Origin: a virus
Taxonomy: Duplodnaviria > Heunggongvirae > Uroviricota > Caudoviricetes
Strand: one strand, 5' to 3'
DNA: 64,000 nt
IMG/VR virus record: IMGVR_UViG_3300033692_000022
The translations under genes were made by a program, and so were the position numbers. Within the stretch, counting starts at the first letter, position 1. Every line of letters begins with the position of its first letter. Below, piece by piece: positions 3,721 through 61,746 of this stretch. Under the pieces are notes generated by a model. It searched no databases, was not told where the DNA came from, and saw only the letters and a list, made by a program, of their open reading frames with translations.

Positions 3721-4539
3721 ATGCTAGAAAAAAAGACATATAATGAATTAATGGATGAAGCCCTTTATCTTATTCCTAGAAATACTGATATTACAAATGT
3801 GAACCCGGGCGGAATAGCAAGAAGTCTTTTAGAGATACAAAATAGACAGCTTGCTAAATACTATGACACTCTTGAGGTAAATCATGCTTTGGGATTCCTT
3901 TCAGAAACTAAGGGTGAATACCTTGATCTGATAGGTCAAATGATGGACTGTCAAAGAGAGCCAGAAGAGGGCGACGAAAATTACAGGTACAGGATAAGCC
4001 AGAAGGTAAATACAGCAGCTAAAGCAAATAAGATGGCTATTAGACTTGGATGTTTAAGTGTAGATGGAGTAAGAGATATAAAGATGAAACGATGGGTGCA
4101 GGGCACGGGTTCTTTTGCAGTTTATGTAATATCTGAAGAAGGAATAGTATCAGACGAGCTATTAGAGAGAGTACAGAAAAAGATAGATGAAGTACAGGCC
4201 TATGGCAACAAGGGTATAGCCGTCAAGCCCAATGAAATAAAACTTGAGATGAAAGTGCGTATAACCTATTCTTCAGATACCACTGAGGTAGAAAAAAGAA
4301 ATGTGGCCCTAGATGCAAGAAGAAACTTAAGAAAGTATATACAGAACTTAAGTATAGGTGAGGACTTAATAATAAACGAAGCCATAGAACGTGTAATGAA
4401 CACCAGTAATCAGATTAAAAATATGAATATCTACCATTTATCACTTAGAGGTAGGCCAGTATTGCTCAGTGATCAGACAGTTTACTGGGATGAGATAATA
4501 GTAGAATCAGATAAACCCAATTCAGTATATGTAAGCTAA
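3721..4539 (+). CDS. Baseplate J-like protein
   Basis: The N-terminal region (DEALYLIPRNTDITNVNPGGIARSLLEIQNRQLAKYYDTLEVNHALGFLSETKGEYLDLIG) matches the Baseplate_J family signature. Strong ribosome-binding site AAGGAGGAAGAAAATG. Confidence 0.6.
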   Translation: MLEKKTYNELMDEALYLIPRNTDITNVNPGGIARSLLEIQNRQLAKYYDTLEVNHALGFLSETKGEYLDLIGQMMDCQREPEEGDENYRYRISQKVNTAAKANKMAIRLGCLSVDGVRDIKMKRWVQGTGSFAVYVISEEGIVSDELLERVQKKIDEVQAYGNKGIAVKPNEIKLEMKVRITYSSDTTEVEKRNVALDARRNLRKYIQNLSIGEDLIINEAIERVMNTSNQIKNMNIYHLSLRGRPVLLSDQTVYWDEIIVESDKPNSVYVS

Positions 4540-4634
4540 TTTTAGAATAGATGAAAATTATTAGGGAAATAGGGTAAATCACTGTCAAAAAGACCCTTAA
4601 AACAGGTATTATATATATAGAGGTACTTTTAATA

Positions 4635-6035
4635 GTGCGTAACTTAAAGGAGAGGTATATCTTGTCTTATAATATTAATTATCCTTATTCAGATAAAACT
4701 CAAGAGATGTTCGATTATCTACCCAGCTGGATGGAGATGGCCAAAGAAAAAGAGTCTTCCGCACAGCAATTTATGAATTTCTTTGGGTTGAAATTTGAAG
4801 AGATGGATGAAATTTTAGAAGAATTATTAAATAATAGAATACTTGTTACAAATAGCACCGAACAGCCCGACATTATATACAAGATCGACCTCCCTTCGAT
4901 ATATATTGAAAGTAGCGAGGTTGAGATAAAAGGGGCTGGAAGAATATTAGAAGAAAAGAATGAGCTCAAAGAATTTTATAATACTGACGACTCATATATT
5001 ATAGATACGGAAAAGAATATAGCATACATCAGAAATTCTTATGGCGGCGAAGATACAGGTAAAGTAAATGTAAGCATATACAATAAATCAGAACTGGTCT
5101 TTGAAGAAGAAATAGAACTGAGAGTACACCATGTATGGAACTCATTAGACGAGTTCGGATTACTGCTTAACTTACCAAGAAACCACAATGAAGATAATGT
5201 ATCCTACAAAAAGAGACTGCTAAATGTATTTAGGTACCTGCCTAATTCGACAAAAAGCGGATTAACATATGGTATTTCAAATTCACTCGAGCTTATTAAA
5301 ACTATAGAGTGGCCAAATGATGATGTTGCTATTGAGATACAGGGAACACAGATACTTAAAAGTACCATAAAAGTAAATGGCAAAAATGTAGAAGAAGAAA
5401 ATATAACTAAGCTGGATAATGATAGATACAAGATAGACCCAGTTAATACTGGTTCAGAAAGTATTGTAACATATATCTGCGGAGTAGAGCTGCATTCACT
5501 CAGTGATAAAAAAGACGAAAAGTTCCAGAACCAACTCTATAAGACAAATAAGACGGCCACAAATAAATTAAAGTATTATGTAAATAGAATTACTGATGAT
5601 ATCCCTATTATGTGGGGATCGTTCTTATGGGACAGGGGCTGGTGGGACCCAGCAGAAAAGAACCTATTCGGTATAGATTTTCTACCGTCAATCTGGGATC
5701 CAAATGTAGAGAACTGGAAATACTTCGAAGAAGATGAAAAACAGCCTCTCGACGTAGAAGGCATGGAACACTTTATGTTCTCAAGTTACTGGGACGAAAG
5801 CCAGTACAACGGCAGACTGGGATTCAATAAAGGTAAACTATATGGTATACCTGTAGGAGAATTTACTTTTTCGGACGATGGTGGAAAAACTGATTACGAT
5901 TTAACTTCTGGCTTTGACAAGGGAGAACTTACAGATACTGAAGTAGAAGAGTTTTCTTTTTCAGATGATATAGCAGAAGTCCAATACAGCATGAAAAAAG
6001 GATTTAACTATGGATACTTCAGAGAGGAGGATTAG
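4635..6035 (+). CDS. Baseplate / tail-fiber-associated protein (gpI-position)
   Basis: 466-aa ORF between baseplate J and the first giant fiber. No recognisable catalytic motif; assignment is by synteny only. Confidence 0.3.
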   Translation: MRNLKERYILSYNINYPYSDKTQEMFDYLPSWMEMAKEKESSAQQFMNFFGLKFEEMDEILEELLNNRILVTNSTEQPDIIYKIDLPSIYIESSEVEIKGAGRILEEKNELKEFYNTDDSYIIDTEKNIAYIRNSYGGEDTGKVNVSIYNKSELVFEEEIELRVHHVWNSLDEFGLLLNLPRNHNEDNVSYKKRLLNVFRYLPNSTKSGLTYGISNSLELIKTIEWPNDDVAIEIQGTQILKSTIKVNGKNVEEENITKLDNDRYKIDPVNTGSESIVTYICGVELHSLSDKKDEKFQNQLYKTNKTATNKLKYYVNRITDDIPIMWGSFLWDRGWWDPAEKNLFGIDFLPSIWDPNVENWKYFEEDEKQPLDVEGMEHFMFSSYWDESQYNGRLGFNKGKLYGIPVGEFTFSDDGGKTDYDLTSGFDKGELTDTEVEEFSFSDDIAEVQYSMKKGFNYGYFREED

Positions 6036-6040
6036 CATAG

Positions 6041-9000
6041 ATGACAAAACGACTTAAGGCTTTTCAGTCAGGAATAGGAGACAATGAAGATCTATTCCCA
6101 AAAGCACCAGAAAGCTCAAATATTGTAGAAGAATTTAGTTACTATTTAAGATTAAAAGGAACAAAAATAAATAATAGGGCAACGTTCCCTGAAGCAGAAT
6201 TCAACGCTATGCTAACTCTCCATGCAAATCAAAAACAGGCTAATCACCCAGAAGAAAGTTATAATATTTTACTTAAGGGATATCCTGTTTTTAGAGTAGA
6301 CTATGAGGTAAAAGCTAAGGCAAGGCATAATCCTGCTACTTTTAAGTATAAAATTGGAGTTAAAACTGGCCAATGGTACAGGGAAACAGGAGAAAAGACC
6401 GGGCAGACAGTAAAAGATGGTCATTTTTATAAGTCTTCTAATAGTAGGGTAGAAGATATAATAACTTCAGATTCCAATATCCCCTCTGATGTATTCGGAG
6501 GTTCTTATACCGTTAAGAGCATAGCAATTATGGAATCAGGAACCAATAATACAAGCATCATAATATTCAGCCAAGATGGTGAGAATAAAATAGATAGTTC
6601 GGACACTAACGCTATCAGAGATAGTTATGTATATTCAAAGGGAAGTGTATATACTGGAGATATATATGAGCACAAGGGCTCATTCACGAGATCAGTAACC
6701 AAAAGAGATGGCCAGATTGATCTAGGTACTATTTTAAATCACAGCTTCCCAGAGCCGCCGGCCGGACAAACAGTAGACTACGAGATAATAGATAACTCCT
6801 TCCACAGAAATCACATCAACTTAAGATTCTCAAACGGCAGCAGCCAAACAACCAACCACAACAACAATATATTACTGGATACAGATTATTACATGACTAA
6901 AAGAATAACAGGAGACGTTAAATACGGAGAGCCAGCTTCTATAAAAATAGATTCAAAAAATGGATGGAACAGGTCTATACCTAATCCTAGTGGATTAAGC
7001 AGGCCAGATAGATTTTTGATAGAAAAAGACGACCAGTCAAGTAGTGGCTATATAAAAAGTAACTTTGGATTATCATCTTCTGCTTCCATCACAAAATTTT
7101 CGACATACAACGATGACGTTGATGATAGGTTTACTGATACAGACTACAAAATAGATGACTCACTGATAATAAAATCTACTCATGAAAACTATGTAGATGG
7201 AGCCTGGGTATCTAACCCTAGATTCTTTAATGGATTTGTAAACGGAGATGGACCATTGTGGATGAGAAAACCATATAAAGCAACGATAGAAATAAGCAGA
7301 CCGAAAAAAGTCGCAGAAGAAGATAAAGAATACTATATTATCGATTACGATATAATTAGTCTTGATTATTACAATTATAGGGGCAGCTACAAAATACCGG
7401 CCAGTATATATCCTGAGACCATAAAAGTCAAGTTGGAAATTATTTCCTATGAATATGACTATGATGGGGCACTAGATGATGACGGTGTTGATATTTACTT
7501 CGATGATCTAACAACAGAAAGAGACTTAGATAACGGGATACACGAAAATATAACTGTAAAATCTCAAACCTCGATAGAGGAAAATATTGAAAGAGAATGG
7601 ATATCTCCTGCTTTAAGTTATGACAAAATAAATATCAGACAGGGCGAGTCATATGATAGAGACTTACCAGATTACGGAGAATTCAATATACCAGATGATG
7701 TTGAACCTCCTTTCGATTATATTCTTGATTATGATAATCAAAACATCAATGCTGAAATAAATAATGGCGTGGTTTCCGCTTATGTTAGGAAATCAAACAA
7801 CTGGCCACTCAATATCCATAACGGTTATTATTATTTAAACCAAAAAGAAAATTACCTATATGCTAATAAAAAAGAAGTAGAGGTAAAAGATGTTGGTACA
7901 GACGTAGAAGATAGATATGAATTCAAACTCTCTTCTACTTGCGAAAGATCATTTAATGTACCAGAAAGTAAAGTAATAGAAGTAGATAGCAAGAGTGACT
8001 TCGAAAACAACAAAATAGCATCGAATATAGATCTAAAAACAGAAGAGGGAATAGCAAAATTAGCTGTAAATCCTTCTAGTAATGTTAAATATAGTTTCGC
8101 AGATGGCATGGATATAATTGACATGGCCATAGATTATGAAAGAAGCCAGATCATAGCAGGAACAGGTTTAAGCGGTTTAATAATATATGACTATTACAAT
8201 AAGGAAAAAGTTGCTCAATTAGATCATACTAACAGTCCTTTAAAAGATAGGCCAATATCTTCAGTAGCATACAGCAACGGTAGAATAGCAGTAGGTTATG
8301 AAGAAGATGGAGTAATTGTTATAGGCTCAGAAAATTATAGCAAGCTGGCAGAATATACCGATGAATCAGAGTTGAATCTTTACTGGCGTAATGGTAACAA
8401 AATAAGAGATTTATATTTAACTGACCAGTATTTGATTATAGGTAGTGGATACGGCGGCGGAATAGCCGTAATAGACTTCTCTACTAATATGATTGAATAC
8501 TACAGGACAAATGGTTATGAGGACTATATAACATCAATAGACTTTGATGGTGAATACATCTATGCTTCTTATAGTTACAGCTCTGGATTCAATAGTGGGA
8601 TAATTAAATGGACCTTTAAAGATGTCGATCCAGATAACACAGAAGAAATATATAGAGATACATCTACCTATCCTATAGTAGTAGATATCAAAGCTAAAGA
8701 CGGCAAGATATATGCAGCAAAAAGAGACGACAAGAAAGCACTAATAATAGATGAAAACGGAGAGATAGAAGAAATAGCAAGTCCAGATGGTACTCATTTA
8801 ATATGCGTAGATGTAGACAGTGATTACCTGTATCTTGGAACAATGTCCGGTGTTTACTTATATAATTTCGAGCACCAGGTAATAGAACAGGAAATAAATA
8901 ATATAGTAGATTTCGGTCTTGGTAATAATGCAAACTCCATAATCAAAGAAAAGGACAAGCTATTCGTTGGTACTGTAAATGGTATTGCAGAGTTAGGAAA

Positions 9001-10666
9001 GAAATATGAAAGTTACGGAGAGATGTTATCAGAAATCTATGACCTAAGTAGTGATGTTGCCGATATAGATGCAATAACATTTGATTCTATAGAGGAAGGT
9101 GGCACAAGGATAGTAGTTACAGCAAGAACTTCAGATGATATGGAGAACTGGTCTAACTGGGAGCTAAAGCCCCCTAAAAATAGATACTACCAGTTTAAAG
9201 TTGAAATGTGGAGTGATGATGCTTTAGATAACAGAATAACTCCTAAGCTGGATAAAATAACTATTCAGTATTACAAATCAGAAGACCGTACAGAAATGGT
9301 TGATATAGATACTGATCCTATTAAGTTTATAATCAGGCAGGACTCAAGATACCATCAGCTATTTAATGATACAGCAGAAGAAATATTAAAAGAACACATA
9401 GAAAATAAAACTGACTACTCTATTGATAAACTCGTTATTAAAGATATTAGAGCGGAAGAAATAAGCCCAAATATAGAGGTTGAAATACAGGATAATATAA
9501 TCTATGCAAAAACAATCTTTAACCAGGACGACAGTAATATTGACTTCATATTAAATGAGGTGCCACAACAGGGTAGCCCTATAATAGTAACAGACCTTGA
9601 GACCGGTAATAAACTTAGAGCTGTAAAATTCCAGAACGAATTCGGACAGTACTCAATAATGAAAACTGAAACCCTTGAAATAACAAAAAATAGTACTGTA
9701 ATCGCCTCGTTTACTGACATAAAAGATGTTGTAGCTTACGACCTTGATGGTGATTTACTGGATGTATCTGGTGTAGATGAAAATGAAGTTACTGTATACA
9801 AGGGAAGAGACAGCCTACCAAAAGGACAAAAAATAGAGCTATCATATATCTTGAGAGATTCATTCATAGCAGATCAAAACTTCGGAGAAGAACAGACGAG
9901 GTTTACCTTTTCAAGAAAGTACGAGAATATAAAAATCGAATATGAAGGAAGTAAATTTAGTAAATTCTACAGCGCCGAAGAGGTAGAGTTAAACCCGATA
10001 TTCAGTCCTTATGTCAATGGATTTAGTTATATAAGCGAAGATAAAAAAGACCCATTCTATTTAAAGTTGGAAGTGTCTCCAGAATGGACATTCTTCGGAG
10101 TAGAAGAAAACATATCAGTATTCTGTATGATAACAGACATATTGGGTAACCCTATACAAAACCACGGCATAGAATTATTCACAAATACCGGCAGCATAGA
10201 AGTAGAAAATGAGAGTAAGACAGATCAATACGGAGTCGTTAGGGGCATATTAAAACCAGACGATGAAGCCAGACGAATTACAGTAACAGCAAGAGTAGAC
10301 GGTACAACACTAACTGAAAGCAAAAGTGTTAACGTAATCGAGGATAAGACCCCTGATTATTACTTGTTCGTAAACTCAGATACAGACCTTCTTGCTACTA
10401 CCGATGGTGATGACCTACAGGAAACACTGGTCAAGGCAAGGCTTGTTGATGAGAAATGGAACCCAGTATATGATGAAGAGATAATGTTTAATATAGTAAG
10501 CGGAAGAGGCTCAATATCTGGGAGGAAAAGAACAAATAATGCTGGAGTTGCTACTGCAGTTTACACATCGGGAAGCAATAGCGGAATATCAACTATAAAG
10601 GCAACAGCAGAAATAAACACAAAATACTATTCTGACACAAAAGAGATAGAAGTAATAGATATATAA
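6041..10666 (+). CDS. Giant tail fiber / adhesin (1541 aa) with beta-propeller-like repeats and a C-terminal bacterial Ig-like (Big_1-type) domain
   Basis: Sits in the P2 gpH position. The central region carries repeated strand motifs (IAVGYEEDGVIVIG, YLIIGSGYGGGIAVIDF, YIYASYSYSSG). The C-terminus (ARLVDEKWNPVYDEEIMFNIVSGRGSISGRKRTNNAGVATAVYTSGSNSGISTIKATAEI) resembles invasin/intimin Ig-like domains. Confidence 0.5.
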   Translation: MTKRLKAFQSGIGDNEDLFPKAPESSNIVEEFSYYLRLKGTKINNRATFPEAEFNAMLTLHANQKQANHPEESYNILLKGYPVFRVDYEVKAKARHNPATFKYKIGVKTGQWYRETGEKTGQTVKDGHFYKSSNSRVEDIITSDSNIPSDVFGGSYTVKSIAIMESGTNNTSIIIFSQDGENKIDSSDTNAIRDSYVYSKGSVYTGDIYEHKGSFTRSVTKRDGQIDLGTILNHSFPEPPAGQTVDYEIIDNSFHRNHINLRFSNGSSQTTNHNNNILLDTDYYMTKRITGDVKYGEPASIKIDSKNGWNRSIPNPSGLSRPDRFLIEKDDQSSSGYIKSNFGLSSSASITKFSTYNDDVDDRFTDTDYKIDDSLIIKSTHENYVDGAWVSNPRFFNGFVNGDGPLWMRKPYKATIEISRPKKVAEEDKEYYIIDYDIISLDYYNYRGSYKIPASIYPETIKVKLEIISYEYDYDGALDDDGVDIYFDDLTTERDLDNGIHENITVKSQTSIEENIEREWISPALSYDKINIRQGESYDRDLPDYGEFNIPDDVEPPFDYILDYDNQNINAEINNGVVSAYVRKSNNWPLNIHNGYYYLNQKENYLYANKKEVEVKDVGTDVEDRYEFKLSSTCERSFNVPESKVIEVDSKSDFENNKIASNIDLKTEEGIAKLAVNPSSNVKYSFADGMDIIDMAIDYERSQIIAGTGLSGLIIYDYYNKEKVAQLDHTNSPLKDRPISSVAYSNGRIAVGYEEDGVIVIGSENYSKLAEYTDESELNLYWRNGNKIRDLYLTDQYLIIGSGYGGGIAVIDFSTNMIEYYRTNGYEDYITSIDFDGEYIYASYSYSSGFNSGIIKWTFKDVDPDNTEEIYRDTSTYPIVVDIKAKDGKIYAAKRDDKKALIIDENGEIEEIASPDGTHLICVDVDSDYLYLGTMSGVYLYNFEHQVIEQEINNIVDFGLGNNANSIIKEKDKLFVGTVNGIAELGKKYESYGEMLSEIYDLSSDVADIDAITFDSIEEGGTRIVVTARTSDDMENWSNWELKPPKNRYYQFKVEMWSDDALDNRITPKLDKITIQYYKSEDRTEMVDIDTDPIKFIIRQDSRYHQLFNDTAEEILKEHIENKTDYSIDKLVIKDIRAEEISPNIEVEIQDNIIYAKTIFNQDDSNIDFILNEVPQQGSPIIVTDLETGNKLRAVKFQNEFGQYSIMKTETLEITKNSTVIASFTDIKDVVAYDLDGDLLDVSGVDENEVTVYKGRDSLPKGQKIELSYILRDSFIADQNFGEEQTRFTFSRKYENIKIEYEGSKFSKFYSAEEVELNPIFSPYVNGFSYISEDKKDPFYLKLEVSPEWTFFGVEENISVFCMITDILGNPIQNHGIELFTNTGSIEVENESKTDQYGVVRGILKPDDEARRITVTARVDGTTLTESKSVNVIEDKTPDYYLFVNSDTDLLATTDGDDLQETLVKARLVDEKWNPVYDEEIMFNIVSGRGSISGRKRTNNAGVATAVYTSGSNSGISTIKATAEINTKYYSDTKEIEVIDI

Positions 10667-10678
10667 GGAGGGAAGTAG

Positions 10679-11464
10679 ATGACAGAATCTTTTAAGAAAG
10701 AAATTGAAGACGGAAAATACAGATTAAAGATTGGAAAGCAGGTTCCAGAAGACGATGTTAATATATGTTATCTTGATACCCCTCCTTTAAAATCTACCGA
10801 GAATGTGTATCTTACTGATCTGTCCGAAGGGATAGCAGAAAACAGCTGGGGCGCAAGCAGCAAAGAAAGAACAATGTATTCTGGAGAAGATGGTAAGTTA
10901 TATAATGAATCATTTACAGTAGACAGTGTACCAACTGAAGATGTGCTTGTAACAGATATCTATATGGATCAAGATAACCTTAATGGCCCACTATATTATA
11001 AATACAACCTCTTATATGAACACAGAGACTACACCACAGAGGTTACAGACAATATCAACATACTAAAAGAAGATGGGTCAAAAGTAAGTAAGGAAAGATA
11101 CAAAATTGAATACACCAAAACAGCAGAGGCGACTTACGAGGTCACTCTCTTTTTGTCGTTTAACTCAGATGAAAATAACACATACAGAGTAGAGTACGAC
11201 GCCTTAAATTTCGACAAAATAGTTAAAAGAGACCATACTGAAATACTTAATGCTGAAAAGATATTTAAAGAAACATCTATCAGTGAGGTAAGAGACCATA
11301 GTAATATAGGTAAGAAAATATACGCCAAGAAGGTAGACCAGGAAACAAACGGTTATAATATTTATGTTCCAGTTAAATCTTCAGAGACAGAAGGATCACT
11401 TCACAATAAAGAGATAAATGCTGACCTTCCATTACCATTTAAGTATGAGCAGTTCATTTTGTAA
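10679..11464 (+). CDS. N-terminal segment of a split vWA-domain structural protein (continues in the −1 frame at 11449)
   Basis: 261-aa ORF ending FIL*. The downstream vWA beta-1/MIDAS motif begins in the −1 frame with no start codon (see finding). Confidence 0.5.
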   Translation: MTESFKKEIEDGKYRLKIGKQVPEDDVNICYLDTPPLKSTENVYLTDLSEGIAENSWGASSKERTMYSGEDGKLYNESFTVDSVPTEDVLVTDIYMDQDNLNGPLYYKYNLLYEHRDYTTEVTDNINILKEDGSKVSKERYKIEYTKTAEATYEVTLFLSFNSDENNTYRVEYDALNFDKIVKRDHTEILNAEKIFKETSISEVRDHSNIGKKIYAKKVDQETNGYNIYVPVKSSETEGSLHNKEINADLPLPFKYEQFIL

Positions 11465-13407
11465 TAGATAAGTCTGGTTCTATGAGAGGGGAAGACCCCT
11501 GGAACCCTATGAGAAATGCTGTCAGATACTTTAGAGATTTAGAGAATGTAGACTGTAAGTTTAATGTTACCTATTTCGATAATGATGTTCGTACTGTTTA
11601 CGGTGGTTATGTTAGCCCTTCAACAATACTAGGCTGGAATAACCCTGGTATGGGAGGATCAACAGCTTTCTATGATGCGACCAATGCTGCAGTAAGTAAG
11701 ATGATAAATTATAATAACCTACCAGAAGACCATTCCAAAACTCTTAAAGGATGGAAAAAGGTAATAATAACCATGACTGACGGTCACGACAATGCAAGCA
11801 GCTGGAGACCGCATGATGTAAAAAATAGAGCAGATAAAAACATGGACTCATTAATCTATGGAATTGCCTTTGGTGGCGGGGCGGATACAGGTGCTGTTAA
11901 TGCCATATCACACAAACACAGAAGCGACTCCTCATTGGAGCAGGCTTTTATAGAGATAAGTGAAGAAGTTAAACCGGTACCATTTTCAGACAGGATACTT
12001 GTAGGTTCTGGTCTTGTATCGGAGAACAACAGCCCACTCAAACTAAGACAGTTGATGCTCAATATAACTGATGATATGATGATCGATTCTGTAGAGATAA
12101 CAATGAATGACACCAGTAATGACGTTCACACATTCTTCATGAATGAAAATAACGGCAATAGAGTGGGTACAAGTTTTGACGGCGAGGACCACAGTAAAAT
12201 ATACGCTAAAGACCTCTTGTTTTTCAATGACTCTAAAAGTAGTTGGGAATATGACACAGACAATAGAATATATGTTTACGCCGAGACTGACAAAAAGACA
12301 AGAATATACTCAAGGCAGTATGATGTAAAGATGAAGGAAAGCAAGGGTATATATGCAAGAATGCCAGACATAGATAACATATTCAAAAACTGGTATTTAG
12401 AAGTTCATAACGGCAGGTTCAATACTGAAGTAGTATCTGGAGATGAGATATACAGCTATAATTACTACCTACCAGAATACGAAAGACAATTAAGTGTTAC
12501 CGATGGCAACAACTCTATTAGGGTAAACCAAGAGATTCCAGAAATAATTGATAGAAACCAGCTAAAGCTGGCCCATAAGCCACTTGAAGTAATATCTGAA
12601 AGAGTAGACGGAAAAAGAAATATAAAAAATATAACAGTTAAGCAGGACGAACAGGAGATAGAAATTGAAGACTTCAATGCTGAAGGCGGAATACTGTTCT
12701 TAAAAGATAATATAGATCATACCAAAGATGTCAGAGTTAGTTATTCATACACTAATGAGTGGTATACCTATAAAGGATACTACGATGAAAAGAGAGATAA
12801 ATTTGTATCACTTGACTTAAATCCATTTAATGGTCATAAATACACCAAGAAGTTAGGTAACAATACTTATGTTGAAGAAGACACAAGAGACTTATTCAAT
12901 AAAGTTATCTACCTATATTTAAGACCCGCAGATACAACCAAGAAAAGACCAGGCCGGCCTTATGAAATAGTTTTAGGTAGTAAAAATGATTACACTATAT
13001 TCCATACAATAGGACATAAGTTAAGCGAGTCTGACAGTATGTATTCTGAAAATGTAAAAGAATTAGCCATGATATATCTAAAACCAAACTCTACACAGGA
13101 AGATATATCAGTCATAGATGGCAGAAAAAGAGGCGGCGGCCTAAAGGAAACCATAAACCAGGAGATTATCGAACAGATTAATCCAGAGTCTAATTACTAT
13201 TGGGATATCGGATACTTAGACGGTAAAGCATACCCTGGCAACTCTGTAATAATAGTCAAGCTACCCAAAGAGATATTAAAAGATTATGGAGGCAAATTTG
13301 AAACACAGGAAGTAGAAGAAATAATAGATGAACACATAGCTTATGGATCTTACTTTATCATTGAATATATAGATGACGAAGACTTCATAAGTGATTACGA
13401 GCTCTAG
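11449..13407 (+). CDS. von Willebrand factor A (vWA/MIDAS) domain virion protein. The frame is open from 11449, and the ORF track starts it at ATG 11482, which lies inside the domain.
   Basis: Translation from 11449 gives AVHFVIDKSGSMRGED...GGSTAFYDATNAAVSKM...KKVIITMTDGHDNAS. This contains the DxSxS, T and D residues of a MIDAS site. No ATG/GTG/TTG precedes the DKSGSM motif in this frame. Confidence 0.6.
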   Translation, partial: AVHFVIDKSGSMRGEDPWNPMRNAVRYFRDLENVDCKFNVTYFDNDVRTVYGGYVSPSTILGWNNPGMGGSTAFYDATNAAVSKMINYNNLPEDHSKTLKGWKKVIITMTDGHDNASSWRPHDVKNRADKNMDSLIYGIAFGGGADTGAVNAISHKHRSDSSLEQAFIEISEEVKPVPFSDRILVGSGLVSENNSPLKLRQLMLNITDDMMIDSVEITMNDTSNDVHTFFMNENNGNRVGTSFDGEDHSKIYAKDLLFFNDSKSSWEYDTDNRIYVYAETDKKTRIYSRQYDVKMKESKGIYARMPDIDNIFKNWYLEVHNGRFNTEVVSGDEIYSYNYYLPEYERQLSVTDGNNSIRVNQEIPEIIDRNQLKLAHKPLEVISERVDGKRNIKNITVKQDEQEIEIEDFNAEGGILFLKDNIDHTKDVRVSYSYTNEWYTYKGYYDEKRDKFVSLDLNPFNGHKYTKKLGNNTYVEEDTRDLFNKVIYLYLRPADTTKKRPGRPYEIVLGSKNDYTIFHTIGHKLSESDSMYSENVKELAMIYLKPNSTQEDISVIDGRKRGGGLKETINQEIIEQINPESNYYWDIGYLDGKAYPGNSVIIVKLPKEILKDYGGKFETQEVEEIIDEHIAYGSYFIIEYIDDEDFISDYEL

Positions 13408-13810
13408 AAAGGAGGATTCAATGCCTAAAAGCGACTATCCAAACAATATAGATAGATTCCCTAAAGCGATAGCAAATTCTGATGGGGTGGTCGATTTAAC
13501 CCCTGAAAACTTAAATAAAATACAGGAAGCTATAATGTCAGTACAAAATGAGTTAGGGGTAGAACCAAGTAAAGATAAAGAAGATGTCAGGTCAGTGCTC
13601 GAAAATATAATAGATACTAAAGTAACTAAAGGCACTCCGATGAATCTGAATATGGAGTTAGTTGAAGATGAGAACGGAGATCAGGTTATAGATTTATCAT
13701 TTTCATACGTAGACAACAAAAATTTAGAGTATTTTATTCTGGAAGTATGGGATGAAGAACGACAAAAATACGTACCCTATGATAATAAATTAGGGGTAAT
13801 AAGAAAGTAG
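13391..13810 (+). CDS. Hypothetical virion protein
   Basis: 139-aa ORF with ribosome-binding site AAGGAGGATTCAATG. No recognisable motif. Confidence 0.3.
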   Translation: MITSSRKEDSMPKSDYPNNIDRFPKAIANSDGVVDLTPENLNKIQEAIMSVQNELGVEPSKDKEDVRSVLENIIDTKVTKGTPMNLNMELVEDENGDQVIDLSFSYVDNKNLEYFILEVWDEERQKYVPYDNKLGVIRK

Positions 13811-13818
13811 GTGCTTAC

Positions 13819-14241
13819 ATGGAAGATTTAACTATTAAAAATCTGGATGCTAAAAAAATAAGGTTAAAATTTGGTGATGAAGCTATAGTAGCAACCAGGA
13901 AAAAATTAAATACAAAGCATGTAGGTGCCAAAAGGGTACGCATAAGAGCAGTAATCAATGGAGACAAAAAAGAATTTTGTTATTTTGGGAGGTTCAAACT
14001 CCCTGTAAAGGATAAAAACAAAGTTAGAATCAAAGGCAACAATGGTCAGTGGGTTGAAGGAAAAACGATCAACCTGCTCAAACCACCTACTATATCTTCT
14101 TCTACAGTAAGAAAACCATATTCTCCAAATCTTCAAGTGGAGGTGATTAATACTCCAATAAGGCCAGACACCCTATCTGTTTATAATGAAAAAGTATTGC
14201 AGCACCCCAGAAAAATAGAAACAAGTACCAAAAAAATATAA
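13819..14241 (+). CDS. Hypothetical basic virion protein
   Basis: 140-aa ORF, Lys/Arg-rich, with a TACATGG start context. Confidence 0.3.
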   Translation: MEDLTIKNLDAKKIRLKFGDEAIVATRKKLNTKHVGAKRVRIRAVINGDKKEFCYFGRFKLPVKDKNKVRIKGNNGQWVEGKTINLLKPPTISSSTVRKPYSPNLQVEVINTPIRPDTLSVYNEKVLQHPRKIETSTKKI

Positions 14242-14253
14242 GGAGTTGGTAAT

Positions 14254-15459
14254 ATGCCAAAAAGAACAAAATTAGTATTTGATAGAAACAGTGATGACAC
14301 ACAAAAGTACAATGTCTACAGAGGCAACCAGACAGGAGTTACAAGTTCTTCTGAGCTTGTAATGGAAATTTCCCAGCCAGCAGCACAGTCTGTTATTAAA
14401 GATGTAGTTGGAGAAACTCTTAGTGCAGACGCAGAATTTTTAGTCTATACAGCTGGTCACAAAAATATAATAAACGATGGAACAAATTATCCAGTTACAG
14501 TTTATGTTAATGGGACAGAACAAACAACAGGATTCACCATTAACTATTTACTCGGTAAAGTTACATTTGATGTAGCTTTAACAGTAAATGATGTAATTAC
14601 AATGGATTACAGTTATGACGCGGTAGAGGTTTTAGATGATGACGGTACACAGACTAATGTAACATTCTTAGGAACAGTAGCACAAGACTTAGCTGCTCCA
14701 GATATTCCTGCAAACCCAGGCATAGTTGGAGACGACGCCAATAACAAAGCGATAGTATCATGGGATGGAGTATTAGCAGATAACGGAAGTCAGTACTTTT
14801 ACAAAGTAGAAGCAGAAGATGAGGTAGGAAATAAATCTACATTAACTGCAGAAGTAGCAGCAGTATTAACTGAGGGACTTCATGCAAACCCTTATGTTCT
14901 TGAGAAATCAGAAGACGGAGGAAACACCTGGAGTATAGTAGGAGAATTTAGTACTACTTCCTATGAGGAGACAGGAGTAGATACTACTGCACCAGATGGA
15001 GTGGCTTCTTTAGTATCTACAGTTACAGAAGTTGGAGATCCATTAAAACCAGCTGTTCAGCTTACATGGCAAAACCCTGCTGATGACAATGAAACAATGT
15101 CTCTGACTTATAGAGTTAAATCACAGGATGCTAATGGGAATGTTTCTAGTCCAGGAGCTGCAGTTGGACCGGTTCCAGTATCAACAGGACTTAAAAGAGT
15201 ATTCATTAAGCGTAAGGTAGATGACGGAACTTACCCAACTAATAACGATACCTCTCTTGTAGTATTCGATTCTACAGATTTCACAAATCAATCTTTTGTT
15301 GATTTAGATGTAGCAGAAGATACAATATACAACTACTCAGTTTTTGTTGAAGATAATGCAGCGAACGTATCGGTTGCGGCTACAGTTCAGGCTTCAGTTG
15401 GAGACTTCACTGCTCCTGAAACAGTAACTGGATTAGCAGCTGAGGAAGTAACTATATAA
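14254..15459 (+). CDS. FN3/Ig-like repeat structural protein, possibly an abundant tail or decoration protein
   Basis: It carries several fibronectin-III-like modules (QYFYKVEAEDEVGNKSTL; LTYRVKSQDANGNVSSPG). A strong GC hairpin terminator follows, and its N-terminus is paralogous to the next gene. Ribosome-binding site AAGGAGTTGGTAATATG. Confidence 0.4.
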   Translation: MPKRTKLVFDRNSDDTQKYNVYRGNQTGVTSSSELVMEISQPAAQSVIKDVVGETLSADAEFLVYTAGHKNIINDGTNYPVTVYVNGTEQTTGFTINYLLGKVTFDVALTVNDVITMDYSYDAVEVLDDDGTQTNVTFLGTVAQDLAAPDIPANPGIVGDDANNKAIVSWDGVLADNGSQYFYKVEAEDEVGNKSTLTAEVAAVLTEGLHANPYVLEKSEDGGNTWSIVGEFSTTSYEETGVDTTAPDGVASLVSTVTEVGDPLKPAVQLTWQNPADDNETMSLTYRVKSQDANGNVSSPGAAVGPVPVSTGLKRVFIKRKVDDGTYPTNNDTSLVVFDSTDFTNQSFVDLDVAEDTIYNYSVFVEDNAANVSVAATVQASVGDFTAPETVTGLAAEEVTI

Positions 15460-16638: not shown

Positions 16639-17529
16639 ATGCCTCGGATACAAAAACTTATAGATGGTACATTTAAAAAAGTTGACAATAAAAGAGAAAG
16701 AGAACTACATGAAAAAATCGACCAGGAGATATTAGAAAGAATATCTGAAGATGATCGGATAGAGGATAAATTCACTAAAATAACAAATGATTTAGAGATA
16801 GATATAGATAATGTAGAAGAAGCACTTAACCAATTTATAATTGAACAAAATAATATAAATGATGAACTTAAAGATGAAATAGATACAGAAAGAAGTCAAA
16901 GACTTGAGGCAGATGACACACTCCAGTCCAATATAGATTCTGAAGAGAATGCTCGTAAATCAGAAGATCAAGCAATAAGGAATGCGATACAGAACGAAGC
17001 AGAAGAAAGAGCCTACGAAGACCAAAAACTTCATAATAAAATAGATGATGAGATATATGACAGAGAACAGGCAGATATAGAACTCAATGAAGTTATCAAC
17101 ACTGAAAGGTCCGAAAGAATAGAAGCTATAAACGATCTCGATTCCAGGCTAAGGCAGGAGATTGTTGATAGAGAAGACGCTGATAATTCTTTAGAGAAAA
17201 AAATAGAGCGCGAGACAAACGAAAGAAAACTTGATGTTAGAATCCTTAATCATAGAACAGATGAAGATACCATTCTTACAAATATGATAATGGATCTTGA
17301 CAGTGAGCTCCAATCTGAGACTAATGCAAGAGAAGCAGAAGACCAAGCACTGCATGCTAAGATAAACCAAGAAATAGCCGATAGAGAAAGTGATGTCTCA
17401 ACTCTTACAACAAATCTCGACAATGAAATACAAACTAGAGTGTCTGAAGTTAATAGACTTGATCAGAGAATAGATGATCATACTGATTCCAACAACTCAG
17501 ATCCGACAATAATCTACAGACTCAAATAG
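16639..17529 (+). CDS. Tail fiber coiled-coil repeat protein, N-terminal part of a split gene
   Basis: Acidic heptad-like repeats (LQSNIDSEENARKSEDQAIRNAIQNEAEERAYEDQ...). The same repeat continues in the −1 frame from 17487. Confidence 0.5.
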   Translation: MPRIQKLIDGTFKKVDNKRERELHEKIDQEILERISEDDRIEDKFTKITNDLEIDIDNVEEALNQFIIEQNNINDELKDEIDTERSQRLEADDTLQSNIDSEENARKSEDQAIRNAIQNEAEERAYEDQKLHNKIDDEIYDREQADIELNEVINTERSERIEAINDLDSRLRQEIVDREDADNSLEKKIERETNERKLDVRILNHRTDEDTILTNMIMDLDSELQSETNAREAEDQALHAKINQEIADRESDVSTLTTNLDNEIQTRVSEVNRLDQRIDDHTDSNNSDPTIIYRLK

Positions 17530-19064
17530 ATGAACTTGATACTATGCTATCGGATGAAGAAACTACAAGGTTTAATGCCGATAAGGCCTTGAGGGATGAC
17601 CTTGACGCTGAAGAGGCAGCAAGAATAGCCGGGGACAACAACCTACAGAACACAATAGACCAGTCAATAGATAATCTTCTGGCCAGAGAATTCTACGGGG
17701 TCGCAGAAGAGACACTCGGAACAGTAACTACTACAACATATGACTTAAATACATCTCAGGAAATAGTACAGGATGTAAGATATTTTGTAGTAATGAATAA
17801 TGACGGCACAGAGGTTATTGGAGATAGCGGCAGTCCAGTTAGTGTTGTAGACATATCTAATAAAACTATCACTTTTAGTGAAACTCCTAATCAAGATGTT
17901 GTTGTTCAGTTCGCAATCAAAAAAACATTAGGCACACTGCCTGCGGACGCACTAATAACTTATGATACCGTAGGTACTAAATTAGATGCAGATATTACCG
18001 AAGTTATAGGGGCCGCGTATTATGATGGGCGAAAGAATGTAGCAGATAACTTCTCACTGGATGTAAGAATAGAAAACGAGATAGAAGATAGAACCAACGC
18101 TGATAATTCTCTCCAAAGCAATATAGACTCTGAAGAGGCGGCAAGAATAGCAGCTGATAATACACTGCAGGATAATATAGATGCAGAAGAGGCGGCTAGG
18201 ATAGCAGCAGATAACGCCTTAGAGCAGACTATTGAAGACGAGGTACAAACAGCAATCACTCAGCTTCAGGCAGATATAGCGGCGGAAGAACAGGCCAGAA
18301 TAGATGCCGATAATGAACTGCGTAACACTATAGAAAATGAAGTCCAAACTGCAATAACACAAATGGAAGAAGACCTTGCGGCGGAAACAGCAGCCAGACA
18401 GCAGCAGATAGCAGACCTACAGGAACAAATAGATAATGATATACAGATAGCCATTGACCAGATGCAGTCAGATCTACAGGCCGAAAAGACAGCCAGACAA
18501 AATGCCGACGACGCATTACAGGCTCAAATAGATACACTTAATACTGAAGTAGCTTCTAAGTTTGATGACCTATATGATGACTTCTATGCTCACCACCACG
18601 ATTCTCAGTACGTAAATCAAGACGGAGACGAAATGACAGGAGACTTAAGTTTCTCTGCCGGTAAAGGAATAGAGTGGTATGAGAATACTGATGGGGCTGA
18701 AATCAAGTTTAACAGTGATAGCGATAGCGCCCAACAGTCTAATCTTGAGTTTAGAGTAAGAGACAACATGGATGAAGGCTTTAAGTTTATAGCATATAAC
18801 GATGGTGTAGACGTAGACGGCATAGAGCTAATGTATATGAATAAAGATAACTTTGATTATCGCGGCCATGAAATCTGGCATGCAGGAAACGATAGCCACA
18901 ACTCAGGTTTAAATGCAGATATGGTCGACGGAGAACACAAAACAGAAGTTAAAGATAATGCTAGAAAACAAACAAATGAATTGAGATTAGAGACTAGAAC
19001 TTCTGATCCAGCAAATGCTGAGGTGGGTAGAATATGGTTAAGAACAGACTTAGTACCAGAGTAA
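17487..19064 (+). CDS. Tail fiber coiled-coil repeat protein, C-terminal part, ending in a DGDEMTGDL-type fiber tip domain. The frame is open from 17487 and the track ATG is at 17544.
   Basis: Repeats DNSLQSNIDSEEAARIAADNTLQDNIDAEEAARIAADNALEQ are followed by HHHDSQYVNQDGDEMTGDLSF, a motif recurrent in phage fiber distal domains. Confidence 0.5.
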   Translation, partial: FQQLRSDNNLQTQIDELDTMLSDEETTRFNADKALRDDLDAEEAARIAGDNNLQNTIDQSIDNLLAREFYGVAEETLGTVTTTTYDLNTSQEIVQDVRYFVVMNNDGTEVIGDSGSPVSVVDISNKTITFSETPNQDVVVQFAIKKTLGTLPADALITYDTVGTKLDADITEVIGAAYYDGRKNVADNFSLDVRIENEIEDRTNADNSLQSNIDSEEAARIAADNTLQDNIDAEEAARIAADNALEQTIEDEVQTAITQLQADIAAEEQARIDADNELRNTIENEVQTAITQMEEDLAAETAARQQQIADLQEQIDNDIQIAIDQMQSDLQAEKTARQNADDALQAQIDTLNTEVASKFDDLYDDFYAHHHDSQYVNQDGDEMTGDLSFSAGKGIEWYENTDGAEIKFNSDSDSAQQSNLEFRVRDNMDEGFKFIAYNDGVDVDGIELMYMNKDNFDYRGHEIWHAGNDSHNSGLNADMVDGEHKTEVKDNARKQTNELRLETRTSDPANAEVGRIWLRTDLVPE

Positions 19065-19080
19065 TGGAGGTGAATTATAG

Positions 19081-22000
19081 ATGGCAGGACAAAAGTTAGT
19101 ATATGATTACTATAGAGAAAGAAGAGGTAGCTGGTACTGGCTTAGCTCAAATCTAAGAGAATGGCTAAATAGCGACCAGGAAAATGTAGGATATACTAAT
19201 GAACCTCCAAATAGTAGCAACCTAGGTTCTGATAGTTATGCGGATGAAGCCGGATTTTTAACTAACTTTACAACAGCAGAAAAAAATGCTATAGCAGTAA
19301 CAAGACACAGAGGGTATACCAGAGGTGTTGATAGTTCCGTAAAGGATGGTGGGAGTACTGATTTAAACTTTTCTTCGTCTTTTGATACTCCATTTGCTAA
19401 CTATTATTGCTCGGGTGTTGAAGATAATTGGGGCTCTTTTAATTATAAAATTTCAGATGATAAAGTATTTTTATTTTCTCCAGTAGAAATTCACCATTAC
19501 TCACAAAGTAGAAATTTCAACATAAAAAAAGCGCCTTCCCAGTATATAAGAAATAAATATAATATATCTTCAAATTATATAAAGTATACCGTTCAGAATG
19601 GGGAGCACTACGACAGACTTTGCGCAATTAGCGATGAAGGAACATTCTCTTCTACTAACTCTGACTCTACAACAGGAATAGCACCTGCTATACATCTCAA
19701 ACCCGATTATACGTTGGATAGTGGGAAAAAAGTATCAAATTTAAAAGTTGGAGAAGAAGTCGTATTTGGTAATTATGGTGGACACCAAATATCGTGGATA
19801 GTAGTTAATAAAACTCCAGATGACTTTGCATTGCTCTGGTCAAAAGAAGTAATAACTTTAAAAGCATACGATTCTCCTAATGATGACTTCTCCTGGGAGT
19901 ATTCAGACCATATAAATTTCAGCAACTATGATGTAAATATAATTAACGACCTTCAAAAATGGTATCCAACAAATGATAAAACTTTACCGAGACTTTATCT
20001 TCTCAATGAAGACGATCTAAATTCAAGACAAGACGGCGGATGGACCTTAAAATTACAGGCAGAAGATACAGGGTCCGGCATAGAAAAGATAGTATTACCT
20101 GATGGTACCGAAGTTTATGATAACTACGCTGAATATTATATTACTGAAAATAAAAGATATTTCATGCACACTGTAGACAATGCTGGGAATAGAAATAATC
20201 TAACTATTCCAGTAAGTAATATAAACCCACCTTCTTCTGTGGACATCAACTCATCATCTGATGGATGGACTAATTCAGACGTAAATGTAGAGATAAAAGC
20301 ATCTAATGACGTAAATGATTATTATGCAAATGAAATAATAACAAATAGTAGAGACTGGTATGGTCCAGCTTGGCCGAATTCTATATCTTACACTGGAAAA
20401 ACCTTCAGAGTGACAGGTAATATAGAATTAATAGATCACAGCGCAGATTTAGGTAATGTAAGAGCAAATGTGGGTTTTAGATATATAAGAAGATATAATA
20501 AAAACGATGGGTACGACATATCGAATAGTTGGCCCACAATAGAACATTTTTATCTTAGGGATATTAACGGAACACAGGCTAGTTTTGATTTTGAATACAC
20601 AGTACCTGGGGATTATTATAAAGATATAAGGCCATTTTTACAGATTGGAGTAGCACATCATAATCATAATTATACAGTAAAATACACTAATGTTAAATAC
20701 GAATTACTTGATAAAAGTGACTTTGGTATAGATTACATCAAACTACCAAATGGTCAGAAAATATATCAAGACACTTATACAACCACAATCACAGAAGAGG
20801 GAACGTATACTTTTGAGGTTATGGATAATAGAGGCGTAGTTACATCAAGAACTATAGAGGTGCTGATAGAAACTAACCCTCCAGATCTAAATATAAGTCA
20901 GGAAGTAACCAAGAAAACCAATCAAAGTTATGACCTCATTGTAAATGCTTCAGATTCCGAAAGCGGAGTTAAAAGAATACTGCAGCCCAACGGCGAATGG
21001 GTTGAATCTGATTCTTTAAGGTATAATATTTATCAAAATGGAACCTATGAGTTTACAGCAGAAGATAATGCTGGTAATAGAAAAACTAAATCAATAACAG
21101 TATCAAATATAGACAAGACTAGCCCAGTAGACCCCAATATCCATGTAGTTGATAAAGGAGAAAATCACGTAACACTTAATTGGATAGCAGATGATACAGA
21201 GTCAGATATAGATTCAATCAGGTTATATTTCCAAGAATCAGACAGTGATGGTAATCATCTGAAAGATATAGATATCAACGGAGATGGAAACACAGAATAC
21301 GACGTTGATGTTACTGGCCAGGAATCATATACGATTAATGGATTAAATGATTACACATACTACAGATATTATTTAAGAGTGATAGATTCAGTAGACAATG
21401 TAAGAAATGACGGCTATCATACCGTAAGAACTCAAGACACTACGGGGCCAATAGTAGATATAACATCGCACAACGATAATACTAATATCGGATATATCGA
21501 CGGCAATCAACTCACTTTAAGCGGAACAGCAGATGACAATGGAGAGGTTGATAGAGTAATCTTAAACGCTTCGGGCGCAGTCACACTTAATGACTTAGTT
21601 ATAGACGACAGCTCACCAGAAAACTGGAGTTATACAAGATCATATCCCGAAGGTCATACAAGACTAGAAGTTAAAGCAATAGACAAAGCCGGCAACGAAT
21701 CGGATGCCAAGTATATAGAATTTGATGTAGATACTGAAGCTCCTCAGATTGTATGGAATAATCACACAGATAAGAGCTGGCGCAACACTGTACCTGATGT
21801 CCACACTAATAATATAGATATAAACTCTGGTATTAGCACCTCAAAACTAGCAGTAACCTCAAATACAACTAAACCTTCCGACTGGATTAATGACTCCTCA
21901 CCTAGTAACACATACTTCCAAAACACATTAGAAGGAAAACCAGATGGTGAATGGTACTGTCATGTTGAAGTAACAGACAACAACGGCAACAGTACTTATA

Positions 22001-25667: not shown

Positions 25668-26824
25668 GACACTGCAGACTTAATATAACAGAACCACCAC
25701 CTCTTGTAGCAAACGATGACTCATTTGAGATATACGAGGGTGGATATATAAATATTTATAAATCTCAGATGTTAGACAATGATTACGATGAAAGCGGGAA
25801 CGAACCAATCGAAATCATAGGTTTCTCTGGTGTTACTGGAGGAACACTAACCGAGTACGACAACTACATTAGATTCGATGTAACAAGTCAGGTAGGAGAA
25901 CCTGCAGAGTTTAAATATACAATAACTAACGCAGTAGGCATAGAAACTACAGCCTATGTAAAGTTAATTATTAAAAAGGGACTTATTGCAGGAATAGATA
26001 ATACTGATTCATATAAAGATATCGAAAAGACCATTCCTATTTCAACCCTCGACATAACAGACATTTCAGAAAACCCACCAATTAAGTTAATAGGTGTTAC
26101 AGATCCAAGCGGCGGAACAGTAACCTTTGACGATTATAACATCTATCTTACCTCAACAGCTGCGGCTGGCAGTAATATTTCATTCAATTATACAGTGCGA
26201 AATGATATTAATCTTACAGATACAGGAACTGTTAATGTGAAAGTTATGCCTACTCCTCAGATACAAACAGCTGATGATACATTCGAAGTTACCCAGGGTA
26301 ATCAGATATTGATTTCTAAATCTGGACTCACCAATAATGATACAGATGAAGGAGGATATTACCCACTAACAGTAACCAATGTATACAACGTAACAGGTGG
26401 AACACTTGATGTAAGCGGAGATACTATTACATTTACTTCTACAAGTCTTGCGGGAGAAGCCGCAGGTTTTAAGTATGATGTAGAAAACACTCAGGGCGTA
26501 ACTCAGACAGGAAATGTATATATCACTGTTAATCCACTTCCAGCCGTAGACTCCTTAATTTTTAGCGACGCACAAACAACCCAGGATAAGCTAAACGAAT
26601 ATACTCCTGATAGTATGCAGGACGTATTTACAAGCTGGTATAGATTCTCTCATCAAGGCGGGAATATACAGGTCAACCCTCTTACTATGTATGACGGCAC
26701 TACTCAATACGATTTATATAGCGAAAATATATGGAAGTACCACGCCGATGAAGATAGAATAGCCTGTCAGCAGAATACTCCTCAGCATGTTGGCTTTCTT
26801 CGCCGGGTGGAGATGATGACATGA
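25634..26824 (+). CDS. Tail protein paralog A, part 2, continuing part 1 in the −1 frame. The track ATG is at 25769.
   Basis: The frame is open from 25634 and encodes NIGHCRLNITEPPPLVANDDSFEIYEGG. This aligns to YIGHCEIKTSQTPNLVAMDDSFEVYEGG of the 28206 ORF, with no start codon upstream of 25769. Cadherin-like or Ig-like repeats follow. Confidence 0.45.
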   Translation, partial: YYRCNRLLWNIGHCRLNITEPPPLVANDDSFEIYEGGYINIYKSQMLDNDYDESGNEPIEIIGFSGVTGGTLTEYDNYIRFDVTSQVGEPAEFKYTITNAVGIETTAYVKLIIKKGLIAGIDNTDSYKDIEKTIPISTLDITDISENPPIKLIGVTDPSGGTVTFDDYNIYLTSTAAAGSNISFNYTVRNDINLTDTGTVNVKVMPTPQIQTADDTFEVTQGNQILISKSGLTNNDTDEGGYYPLTVTNVYNVTGGTLDVSGDTITFTSTSLAGEAAGFKYDVENTQGVTQTGNVYITVNPLPAVDSLIFSDAQTTQDKLNEYTPDSMQDVFTSWYRFSHQGGNIQVNPLTMYDGTTQYDLYSENIWKYHADEDRIACQQNTPQHVGFLRRVEMMT

Positions 26825-60144: not shown

Positions 60145-60159
60145 TACGGAGGTGACACA

Positions 60160-60324: not shown

Positions 60325-60337
60325 GGAGCTGAACTAA

Positions 60338-60850: not shown

Positions 60851-60878
60851 CACAATACTCAAGGAGGCATATTTTAAA

Positions 60879-61670: not shown

Positions 61671-61706
61671 TTTAGTAAATGAAATATAAAAATGTAATAA
61701 AAACGT

Positions 61707-61735: not shown

Positions 61736-61746
61736 AAATATATCAG

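Follow-up and report, generated by a model that had tools for sequence, protein, structure and literature searches.

The window, a 64,000-nt stretch of DNA from a tailed phage (IMGVR_UViG_3300033692_000022), carries two consecutive open reading frames at positions 10679-13407, which raises the question of whether they are two genes, one gene joined by a ribosomal frameshift, or one gene that has been broken. ORF1 (10679-11464, 261 aa) is preceded by a strong Shine-Dalgarno sequence (AAGGAGGG) and its product ends in KYEQFIL, followed by TAA at 11462-11464. The frame of ORF2 lies at -1 relative to that of ORF1; an in-frame TGA occupies 11446-11448, and from 11449 onwards the frame is open and reads AVHFVIDKSGSMRGED. 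It overlaps the frame of ORF1 by 16 nt, U-rich just before the stop codon. The earliest ATG, GTG or TTG in the ORF2 frame is the ATG at 11482, which yields an ORF of 641 aa. No Shine-Dalgarno sequence was found upstream of this ATG, and the frame contains neither a start codon nor a Shine-Dalgarno sequence 5' of its MIDAS motif; by comparison, GGAGG-like sites lie 6-10 nt 5' of the start in the majority of the window's genes. A preliminary description of the locus had read both frames and the lack of an earlier start codon correctly, and had proposed one gene of ~900 aa broken at a TTTT run, either because the assembly lacks one T or because the ribosome shifts by -1 at the stop context.

Translation of the -1 frame from 11449 gives AVHFVIDKSGSM, which includes the MIDAS motif DxSxS (D-K-S-G-S) at 11467-11481 (D at 11467-69, S at 11473-75 and S at 11479-81). 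Pfam analysis located a vWA domain (PF00092, profile positions 2-155 of 174) at 11452-11922 on the plus strand. The score from 11449 was 34.8 bits (E = 2.4e-8), against a gathering cut-off of 23.8 bits and a score of 33.9 bits for the intact homologue P0001; from the ATG at 11482 it was 21.0 bits, and the threshold was passed only when 11449-11481 was translated too. The vWA assignment made from VIDKSGSM in the preliminary description is genuine, and a chance motif is excluded. The later MIDAS residues are T343 (GGSTAF) and D382 (TMTDG) in P0001, both kept in P0002; on sequence, the residue set of DxSxS, Thr and Asp is complete, and any divalent-cation-dependent ligand binding is putative.

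A comparison of the vWA segment with the sequences of solved structures returned weak vWA matches only (E = 0.12), including a match to the vWA domain of ITIH4 that aligns VVFVIDKSGSMSG; the same search with the full-length intact protein gave no match. The beta-1 strand and MIDAS motif read VVFVIDKSGSM in ITIH4 and VHFVIDKSGSM in the intact phage protein, which also resembles vWA domains in its later T (GGSTAF) and D (TMTDGHDN). The phage domain differs from that of ITIH4 in residing inside a structural protein, where any binding is putative. For P0001, AlphaFold2 modelling on a two-sequence alignment reached a mean pLDDT of 34.4, and the model is too unreliable to use; strands and helices alternate in it over residues 270-445.

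Comparison with intact relatives revealed that 10679-13407 is a single gene of ~923 codons for a putative virion, baseplate or tail-fibre-associated protein, homologous to gene 164 of the Bacillus phage 0305phi8-36. On contigs from eight other samples the intact gene encodes 923 aa. A single ORF crosses the junction in P0001 (923 aa, 98-99% identity) and in P0002 (916 aa, 48-50% identity), and the full-length proteins P0007, P0021, P0039, P0031, P0096 and gp164 (27-31% identity) each align through it. All eight near-identical copies and all seven more distant homologues are single ORFs, and the two-frame arrangement was found in none of them. The two ORFs of the window are halves of one gene, as the preliminary description had held.

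The 5' part of this gene (10679-11448, plus strand) comprises codons 1-256 and two bases of codon 257; its sequence does not differ from the first 770 nt of the gene in its intact form (L004, L007 and others), and its product is homologous to the N-terminal region of gp164. The 3' part (11449-13407, plus strand) begins with the codon for A272 of the intact protein and runs to the stop codon; its frame lies at -1 to that of the 5' part, and it is 100% identical to L007 and L018. The ATG at 11482-11484 (plus strand) is not a genuine start; it encodes the M of DKSGSM, which is M283 in the intact protein and corresponds in alignments to an internal Met of P0001, P0002 and gp164. Substitutions relative to other strains first appear at 12648, and the codon differences in the 11449-13407 frame are 33 synonymous and 5 non-synonymous, which indicates that the ORF2 frame has been under purifying selection.

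In the intact gene an N-terminal domain is followed by a linker of 14 residues, then by the vWA domain with its MIDAS motif, and last by a C-terminal domain that is conserved. The linker keeps its length, with no gaps, even in homologues of 27% identity, gp164 among them. The C-terminal domain (~370 aa; 12268-13380, plus strand; P0001 residues ~545-915) matches phrog_28704 (E = 6.9e-42) and is common to hundreds of large phage structural proteins, within many different architectures. A homologue search with a limit of E<=1e-3 returned 661 proteins; for the majority of the best 150 of these 661 the match was to the C-terminal half of P0001 (residues ~460-920). A second, word-indexed search with an alignment as the query added no proteins, and blastn of window positions 10000-14000 against GenBank phages gave no match.

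The two-frame arrangement results from a 43-nt gap, unique to the window, at 11448/11449. DNA alignment with L001-L004 and blast comparison with L007, L010, L011 and L019 showed that the window lacks AGTTGATATAAGCGGATTTAAGCGCTCAGAGCATAAAGGTATT, which codes for (E)VDISGFKRSEHKGI, and reads AAGTATGA joined directly to GCAGTTC. The gap takes out 14 conserved codons and one base, a frame shift of -1; at the protein level, it removes the linker VDISGFKRSEHKGI and puts the remainder out of frame. The upstream frame consequently stops at 11462, and the vWA beta-1 strand and MIDAS motif are left without a start codon; the first vWA residue by Pfam, V273, directly follows the gap. The last codons of ORF1, QFIL and TAA (11450-11464, plus strand), are an out-of-frame product of the gap where the intact gene reads (A)VHFV(I).

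The boundaries of the 43-nt gap are exact, with 0 nt of microhomology, and neither flanking direct repeats nor a hairpin (DNA fold z = +1.09) was found there. A recombination breakpoint at the junction is ruled out by flanks that are identical for kilobases and by substitutions against other strains that set in only at 12648. Exact scans for the deletion junction in viral, metagenome and genome collections gave no match, nor did an exact scan of viral contigs for the intact junction.

The preliminary description placed the break at the TTTT run, but the actual difference lies ~7 nt upstream of it. Inserting one T does fuse the ORFs, as had been claimed, into a product of 909 aa containing KYEQFIFVIDKSGSM, and this fusion scores as a vWA protein in a profile search, equally with the intact protein. 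However, the locus did not arise in this way. All intact copies have exactly four Ts in cattttg, for which the in-frame reading is CAT TTT G (His-Phe); the fusion would lack the 14 residues conserved in all homologues; and no single-base indel occurs anywhere between the window and its 61-kb twin. The loss of one T through a homopolymer error in sequencing or assembly therefore has a negligible probability.

Programmed -1 frameshifts are known in phage tail genes, for example in tail assembly chaperones of the lambda G/GT type. A programmed -1 frameshift, or P-site slippage at UUU-UGU-AA beside the stop codon, could fuse the two frames here, and the 16-nt overlap, its U-rich stretch and a downstream stem-loop (GGUUC...GGAACC, 11476-11506) are what such a site might offer. 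However, C-AUU-UUG is not a slippery heptamer of the X XXY YYZ type, and in the zero frame (C ATT TTG TAA) only the A-site codon could re-pair. The stem-loop starts ~14 nt after the U run, compared with the 5-9 nt expected for a stimulatory RNA structure, its folding is marginal (z = -1.67 against shuffled sequences), and it is equally present in relatives that need no shift. The single ORFs of the near-identical and distant homologues, and the occurrence elsewhere in the window of gaps of the same kind without a T run, also argue against a frameshift, which we regard as extremely unlikely. The resemblance to lambda G/GT is superficial, being limited to overlapping frames and a U-rich overlap in a tail gene cluster; the window site has neither the slippery heptamer nor a conserved two-frame layout. 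On the comparative sequences, both mechanisms offered in the preliminary description, the missing T and the -1 shift, are effectively refuted, and an attractive candidate recoding site vanishes on comparison with near-identical relatives.

A natural split of a gp164-like gene into two separate genes of 261 and 641 codons would be in keeping with the modular and 'hyperplastic' baseplate and fibre genes of this lineage (PMC2147016) and with the many architectures in which the C-terminal domain occurs. However, the 641-aa ORF lacks a Shine-Dalgarno sequence, starts within the MIDAS motif and falls under the Pfam vWA threshold; conserved residues are lost at the site of the split, and an otherwise identical genome has one ORF. 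The chance that these are two genuine genes is very slight.

The 43-nt gap is one of eight. From 2541 to 64000 the window matches a 202-kb metagenomic contig (ena:ERZ27245728:k141_29228) with 0 mismatches apart from eight gaps, which are 43-124 nt each, sum to 511 nt and all lie between 11448 and 28226. In addition to the 43-nt gap, 78 nt are missing at 17252/3, 52 nt at 17501/2, 52 nt at 22820/1, 54 nt at 23276/7, 124 nt at 25661/2, 46 nt at 26793/4 and 62 nt at 28226/7. The gaps are blunt, with 0-1 nt of microhomology at each, and six of the eight lengths are not multiples of 3. Jointly they break five consecutive large structural genes, the seven further gaps splitting the 851-, 1464-, 1258- and 1775-aa genes of the contig into shorter ORFs; none of the split products of the window (261, 641, 1249, 1496 and 506 aa) is on record. 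The eight missing segments share no common motif and have no second copy, with the sole exception of 26 nt over which segments 2 and 3 are 88% similar. The end of an independent Logan contig falls precisely on the left edge of gap 2. Scans of the window for tRNAs and Rfam families were empty.

Since eight gene-breaking gaps are accompanied by zero substitutions, we infer that the gaps did not arise as real deletions; very probably they are an artefact of assembly or processing, for example of contig breaks, or of regions lacking coverage, that were closed up without filler. A homopolymer miscount does not fit, and nor does a biological frameshift signal. The 43-nt stretch is invariant among the known strains, and strain variation is therefore not an obvious reason for an assembly break at this site.

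Alternatively, all eight gaps may be real deletions in a defective or minority phage genome, in which the gene would be a fresh pseudogene producing the 261-aa N-terminal fragment and at most little of the 641-aa fragment, by reinitiation at 11482. The gaps are clean, their flanks are perfect, the window shows neither Ns nor any other direct sign, at the junction or elsewhere, that gaps were closed, and nothing within the sequence itself proves an artefact. However, real deletions would require eight independent blunt events with zero substitutions over 61 kb and the inactivation of five large structural genes, which is implausible for a replicating phage. Such junctions were found in no other sample, and the strong purifying selection on the frame 3' of the gap also speaks against this reading. 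We consider real deletions unlikely. Less likely still is that the gaps, which cluster in the baseplate/tail-fibre module, are real and mark a defective genome in which 17 kb was cut repeatedly through both strands, for example by a host nuclease, and the ends rejoined without microhomology, or that low-level -1 slippage at UUU-UGU-AA expresses the gapped gene; either would be quite improbable. With the gaps taken as an artefact of assembly or processing, 10679-13407 should be annotated as a single gp164-like gene that lacks 43 nt, and at least four neighbouring structural genes, which contain the seven further gaps, should be distrusted.

The closest described counterpart is gp164 (ORF164) of the Bacillus thuringiensis jumbo phage 0305phi8-36, a virion structural protein that is annotated with a bacterial vWA domain and was detected by mass spectrometry of virions; together, ORFs 162-164 of that phage have been proposed as a host-recognition determinant (PMC2147016). 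By likeness to gp164, the product of the window gene would be a virion protein. With the intact gene, the small family of vWA virion proteins in 0305phi8-36-like jumbo phages grows by one member; these proteins are candidate host-recognition components, as had previously been recognised. A literature search for vWA domains in jumbo-phage fibres yielded nothing besides the 0305phi8-36 paper.

A tblastn comparison with gp164 gave 31% identity (E = 5e-44) over query residues 3-890 in two pieces; the homology covers the N-terminal, vWA and C-terminal regions and is spread over two frames in the window. Both proteins have the same order of N-terminal domain, vWA domain with DxSxSM and C-terminal domain (...RGGGLK...YWDIG..DGK). 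They differ in length (1062 aa for gp164, 923 aa for the intact form here) and have an overall identity of ~27-31%; gp164 has insertions before the vWA domain that the intact form lacks, and, unlike gp164, the window copy is interrupted by the 43-nt gap. The genes also correspond in position. Within the baseplate module, each directly follows a giant Big/invasin-type tail-fibre gene (gp163 in 0305phi8-36, a 1541-aa ORF here), and the baseplate J and sheath-initiator genes lie upstream of both.

The first ORF of the interrupted gene (10679-11464, 261 aa) ends in ...PLPFKYEQFIL followed by TAA, and the frame of the second ORF, whose first ATG is at 11482, is -1 relative to it. This second frame is closed by TGA at 11446-11448, opens at 11449 and reads AVHFVIDKSGSMRGED; it contains no ATG, GTG or TTG ahead of 11482, and the layout at 11440-11500 is thus as the preliminary description had read it. 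No Shine-Dalgarno sequence is present upstream of the ATG at 11482; in most genes of the window, the first ORF among them, a GGAGG-type site precedes the start by 6-10 nt. Our profile search with PF00092 (gathering threshold, 23.8 bits) verified the vWA homology, since the translation from 11449 scored 34.8 bits (E 2.4e-8; profile positions 2-155 of 174), whereas the ORF begun at ATG 11482 scored 21.0 bits, below the threshold. The vWA assignment is statistically sound, and the MIDAS-bearing beta-1 strand therefore lies ahead of every usable start codon, as had been proposed. The first ORF by itself matched no Pfam family, PDB sequence searches gave vWA matches that were all sub-threshold, and an AlphaFold2 model built on a 2-sequence alignment had a pLDDT of 34.4, too low for the model to be used.

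Using the fusion with one inserted T as a query, we retrieved two full-length relatives encoded by single ORFs, P0001 (923 aa, 98-99% identity) and P0002 (916 aa, 48-50% identity). Aligned with both, the window protein proved to lack 14 residues in addition to changing frame: across the junction P0001 reads ...PLPFKYE-VDISGFKRSEHKGI-AVHFVIDKSGSM... and P0002 reads ...VPFQYA-VNIAGFKRSEYKGI-AVHFVMDRSGSM.... DNA alignment with four independent contigs mapped the lesion to exactly 43 nt missing between 11448 and 11449, AGTTGATATAAGCGGATTTAAGCGCTCAGAGCATAAAGGTATT. These relatives support the earlier view that the two ORFs are one broken gene; however, the break is not at the TTTT run, as had been suggested, but approximately 7 nt upstream of it. 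In all intact copies GCAGTTCATTTTGTAATAG is unchanged and its four Ts are read in frame (...CAT TTT GTA...), indicating that the run has its full length and does not serve as a slip site. The loss of one T from the assembly, one of the two mechanisms proposed in the preliminary description, is therefore extremely improbable. The other, a ribosomal -1 shift near the stop, deserves hardly any credence either: C-AUU-UUG is no slippery heptamer, the stem-loop lying downstream is too distant as well as weak and is unchanged in relatives that have no need of a shift, and the two-frame layout occurs in none of the homologues in our 8-sequence alignment, which are encoded by single ORFs.

An exhaustive HMMER search gave 661 relatives, most of which have in common only a C-terminal domain of ~370 aa; five (P0007, P0021, P0039, P0031 and P0096) matched over the full length. 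Our 8-sequence alignment, with gp164 of Bacillus phage 0305phi8-36 among its members, shows this 14-residue segment to be ungapped, partly conserved (YEV..G....G) and directly N-terminal to the vWA beta-1 strand. Since the segment is ungapped in the homologues and the first vWA residue assigned by Pfam (V273 of P0001) is one residue past the 43-nt gap, the missing piece is a conserved linker or strand joining the N-terminal and vWA domains, the loss of which also shifts the frame.

The intact stretch was found on contigs from eight other samples in total (ERZ27245802, ERZ27245808 and ERZ27245728; SRR34871449, SRR34861975 and SRR34913713; JGI 3300017922 and 3300017923). The deletion junction did not occur in viral, metagenome or genome collections, and no truncated product of the window is on record. 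The contig ena:ERZ27245728:k141_29228 (202,621 nt), compared as five overlapping pieces, matched 2541-64000 of the window with 0 mismatches, the only differences being eight gaps on the window side, totaling 511 nt: 43 nt in the vWA gene (junction 11448/9), 78 nt (17252/3), 52 nt (17501/2), 52 nt (22820/1), 54 nt (23276/7), 124 nt (25661/2), 46 nt (26793/4) and 62 nt (28226/7). Only the 78-nt and 54-nt gaps are multiples of 3. Each junction has a microhomology of 0-1 nt, and the missing segments are single-copy in the genome and of ordinary base composition, with no common motif; no repeats or hairpins to explain the 43-nt loss were found. Contig genes of 923, 851, 1464, 1258 and 1775 aa are strings of shorter ORFs in the window, the last four, all structural, corresponding to 16639-17529 and 17544-19064; 19081-22830 and onward; 23805-25667, 25769-26824 and 26821-27411; and 27431-28228 and 28206-32696, respectively. 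The split or overlapping ORFs at 16-33 kb were probably caused by the gaps other than that in the vWA gene. An independently assembled 45-kb contig, logan:SRR34913713_466, is 100% identical to the window and ends at the exact left edge of the 78-nt gap, a single coincidence that hints that the gap positions are prone to assembly breaks; SRR34913713 is a different sample from that of the window, because the intact 43 nt are present there.

The simplest reading, which we consider very probable, is that the gaps arose in assembly or processing; for example, adjacent contigs may have been joined, or uncovered stretches dropped, without filler. On this interpretation, which fits the evidence best, the apparent gene break or frameshift has no biological reality. 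A defective genome that truly carries multiple deletions is unlikely, as eight separate blunt losses inactivating five large structural genes, yet with zero substitutions in 61 kb, would be unexpected for a replicating phage. Less likely still is a version in which the blunt deletions of this cluster exist in the phage, perhaps with some rescue by slippage. The frame downstream of the gap differs from other strains by 33 synonymous and 5 non-synonymous codons, a clear sign of purifying selection, so the gene is not an old pseudogene.

Homology and synteny place the gene among the gp164-like, vWA-bearing virion proteins of the 0305phi8-36-type jumbo phages. In a tblastn search, ORF164 of 0305phi8-36 was matched over query residues 3-890 (31% identity, E 5e-44), and the database record describes gp164 as 'contains bacterial von Willebrand domain; identified as virion protein by mass spectrometry'. 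As for gene order, the vWA gene of the window and of its relatives comes directly after a gene for a 1541-aa Big_1/invasin-domain protein, with the sheath-initiator and baseplate-J genes lying upstream; similarly, gp164 comes after the fibre protein gp163 in 0305phi8-36. ORFs 162-164 form a 'hyperplastic' region that is a candidate host-recognition determinant (Hardies et al. 2007, PMC2147016). By analogy with gp164, the intact protein is most likely located at the baseplate or fibre periphery, where its predicted metal-dependent vWA site would be used for adhesion.

The C-terminal ~370 aa (12268-13380), with the motifs LDLNP..GH, RGGGLK and YWDIG..DGK.YP.N, correspond to no Pfam family but to phrog_28704 (function unknown). 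The domain occurs in 661 proteins at E<=1e-3, and the best 150 of these, 121-2526 aa long, combine it with N-terminal parts of many kinds; the domain may serve as a conserved module for baseplate attachment. Comparison with the intact contigs L001-L004 places every substitution within the 3' half of the vWA gene (38 changed codons, 33 of them synonymous and 5 non-synonymous) at 12646-13377, and the cluster extends to ~13800 in some strains. There are 0 substitutions at 4551-12647 relative to L002 and L004 and one (11050) relative to L001 and L003. The 12646-13377 region looks like a mosaic patch from inter-strain recombination in the C-terminal domain; no recombination breakpoint was located at the 11448/11449 junction. 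A second short patch seems to be present at 4104-4221, within the baseplate-J-like ORF (3721-4539), where 8 substitutions (6 synonymous) relative to L001-L003 have otherwise identical flanks. The 48%-identity relative on ena:ERZ773359 NODE_1031 has a radical-SAM gene (13548-14915) downstream of the vWA gene, at a distance of a few genes, without a counterpart at the equivalent place in the window.

Scans for tRNA and Rfam families across the window gave no matches. The only large minus-strand gene (52845-53762) encodes a tyrosine integrase/recombinase with Phage_integrase and SAM-like N-terminal domains, and adjoins PriCT_1 and DnaB-like genes in this ~200-kb jumbo-phage genome; the rest of the window is plus-strand. 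DNA-processing genes at 59383-62472 encode a PD-(D/E)XK nuclease, RuvC, a sigma-70 region-4 protein and a second PD-(D/E)XK/Cas4-like nuclease. Just past the window end, k141_29228 carries a Tad2-like gene and an HNH/NUMOD4 endonuclease gene next to an RNR alpha fragment.
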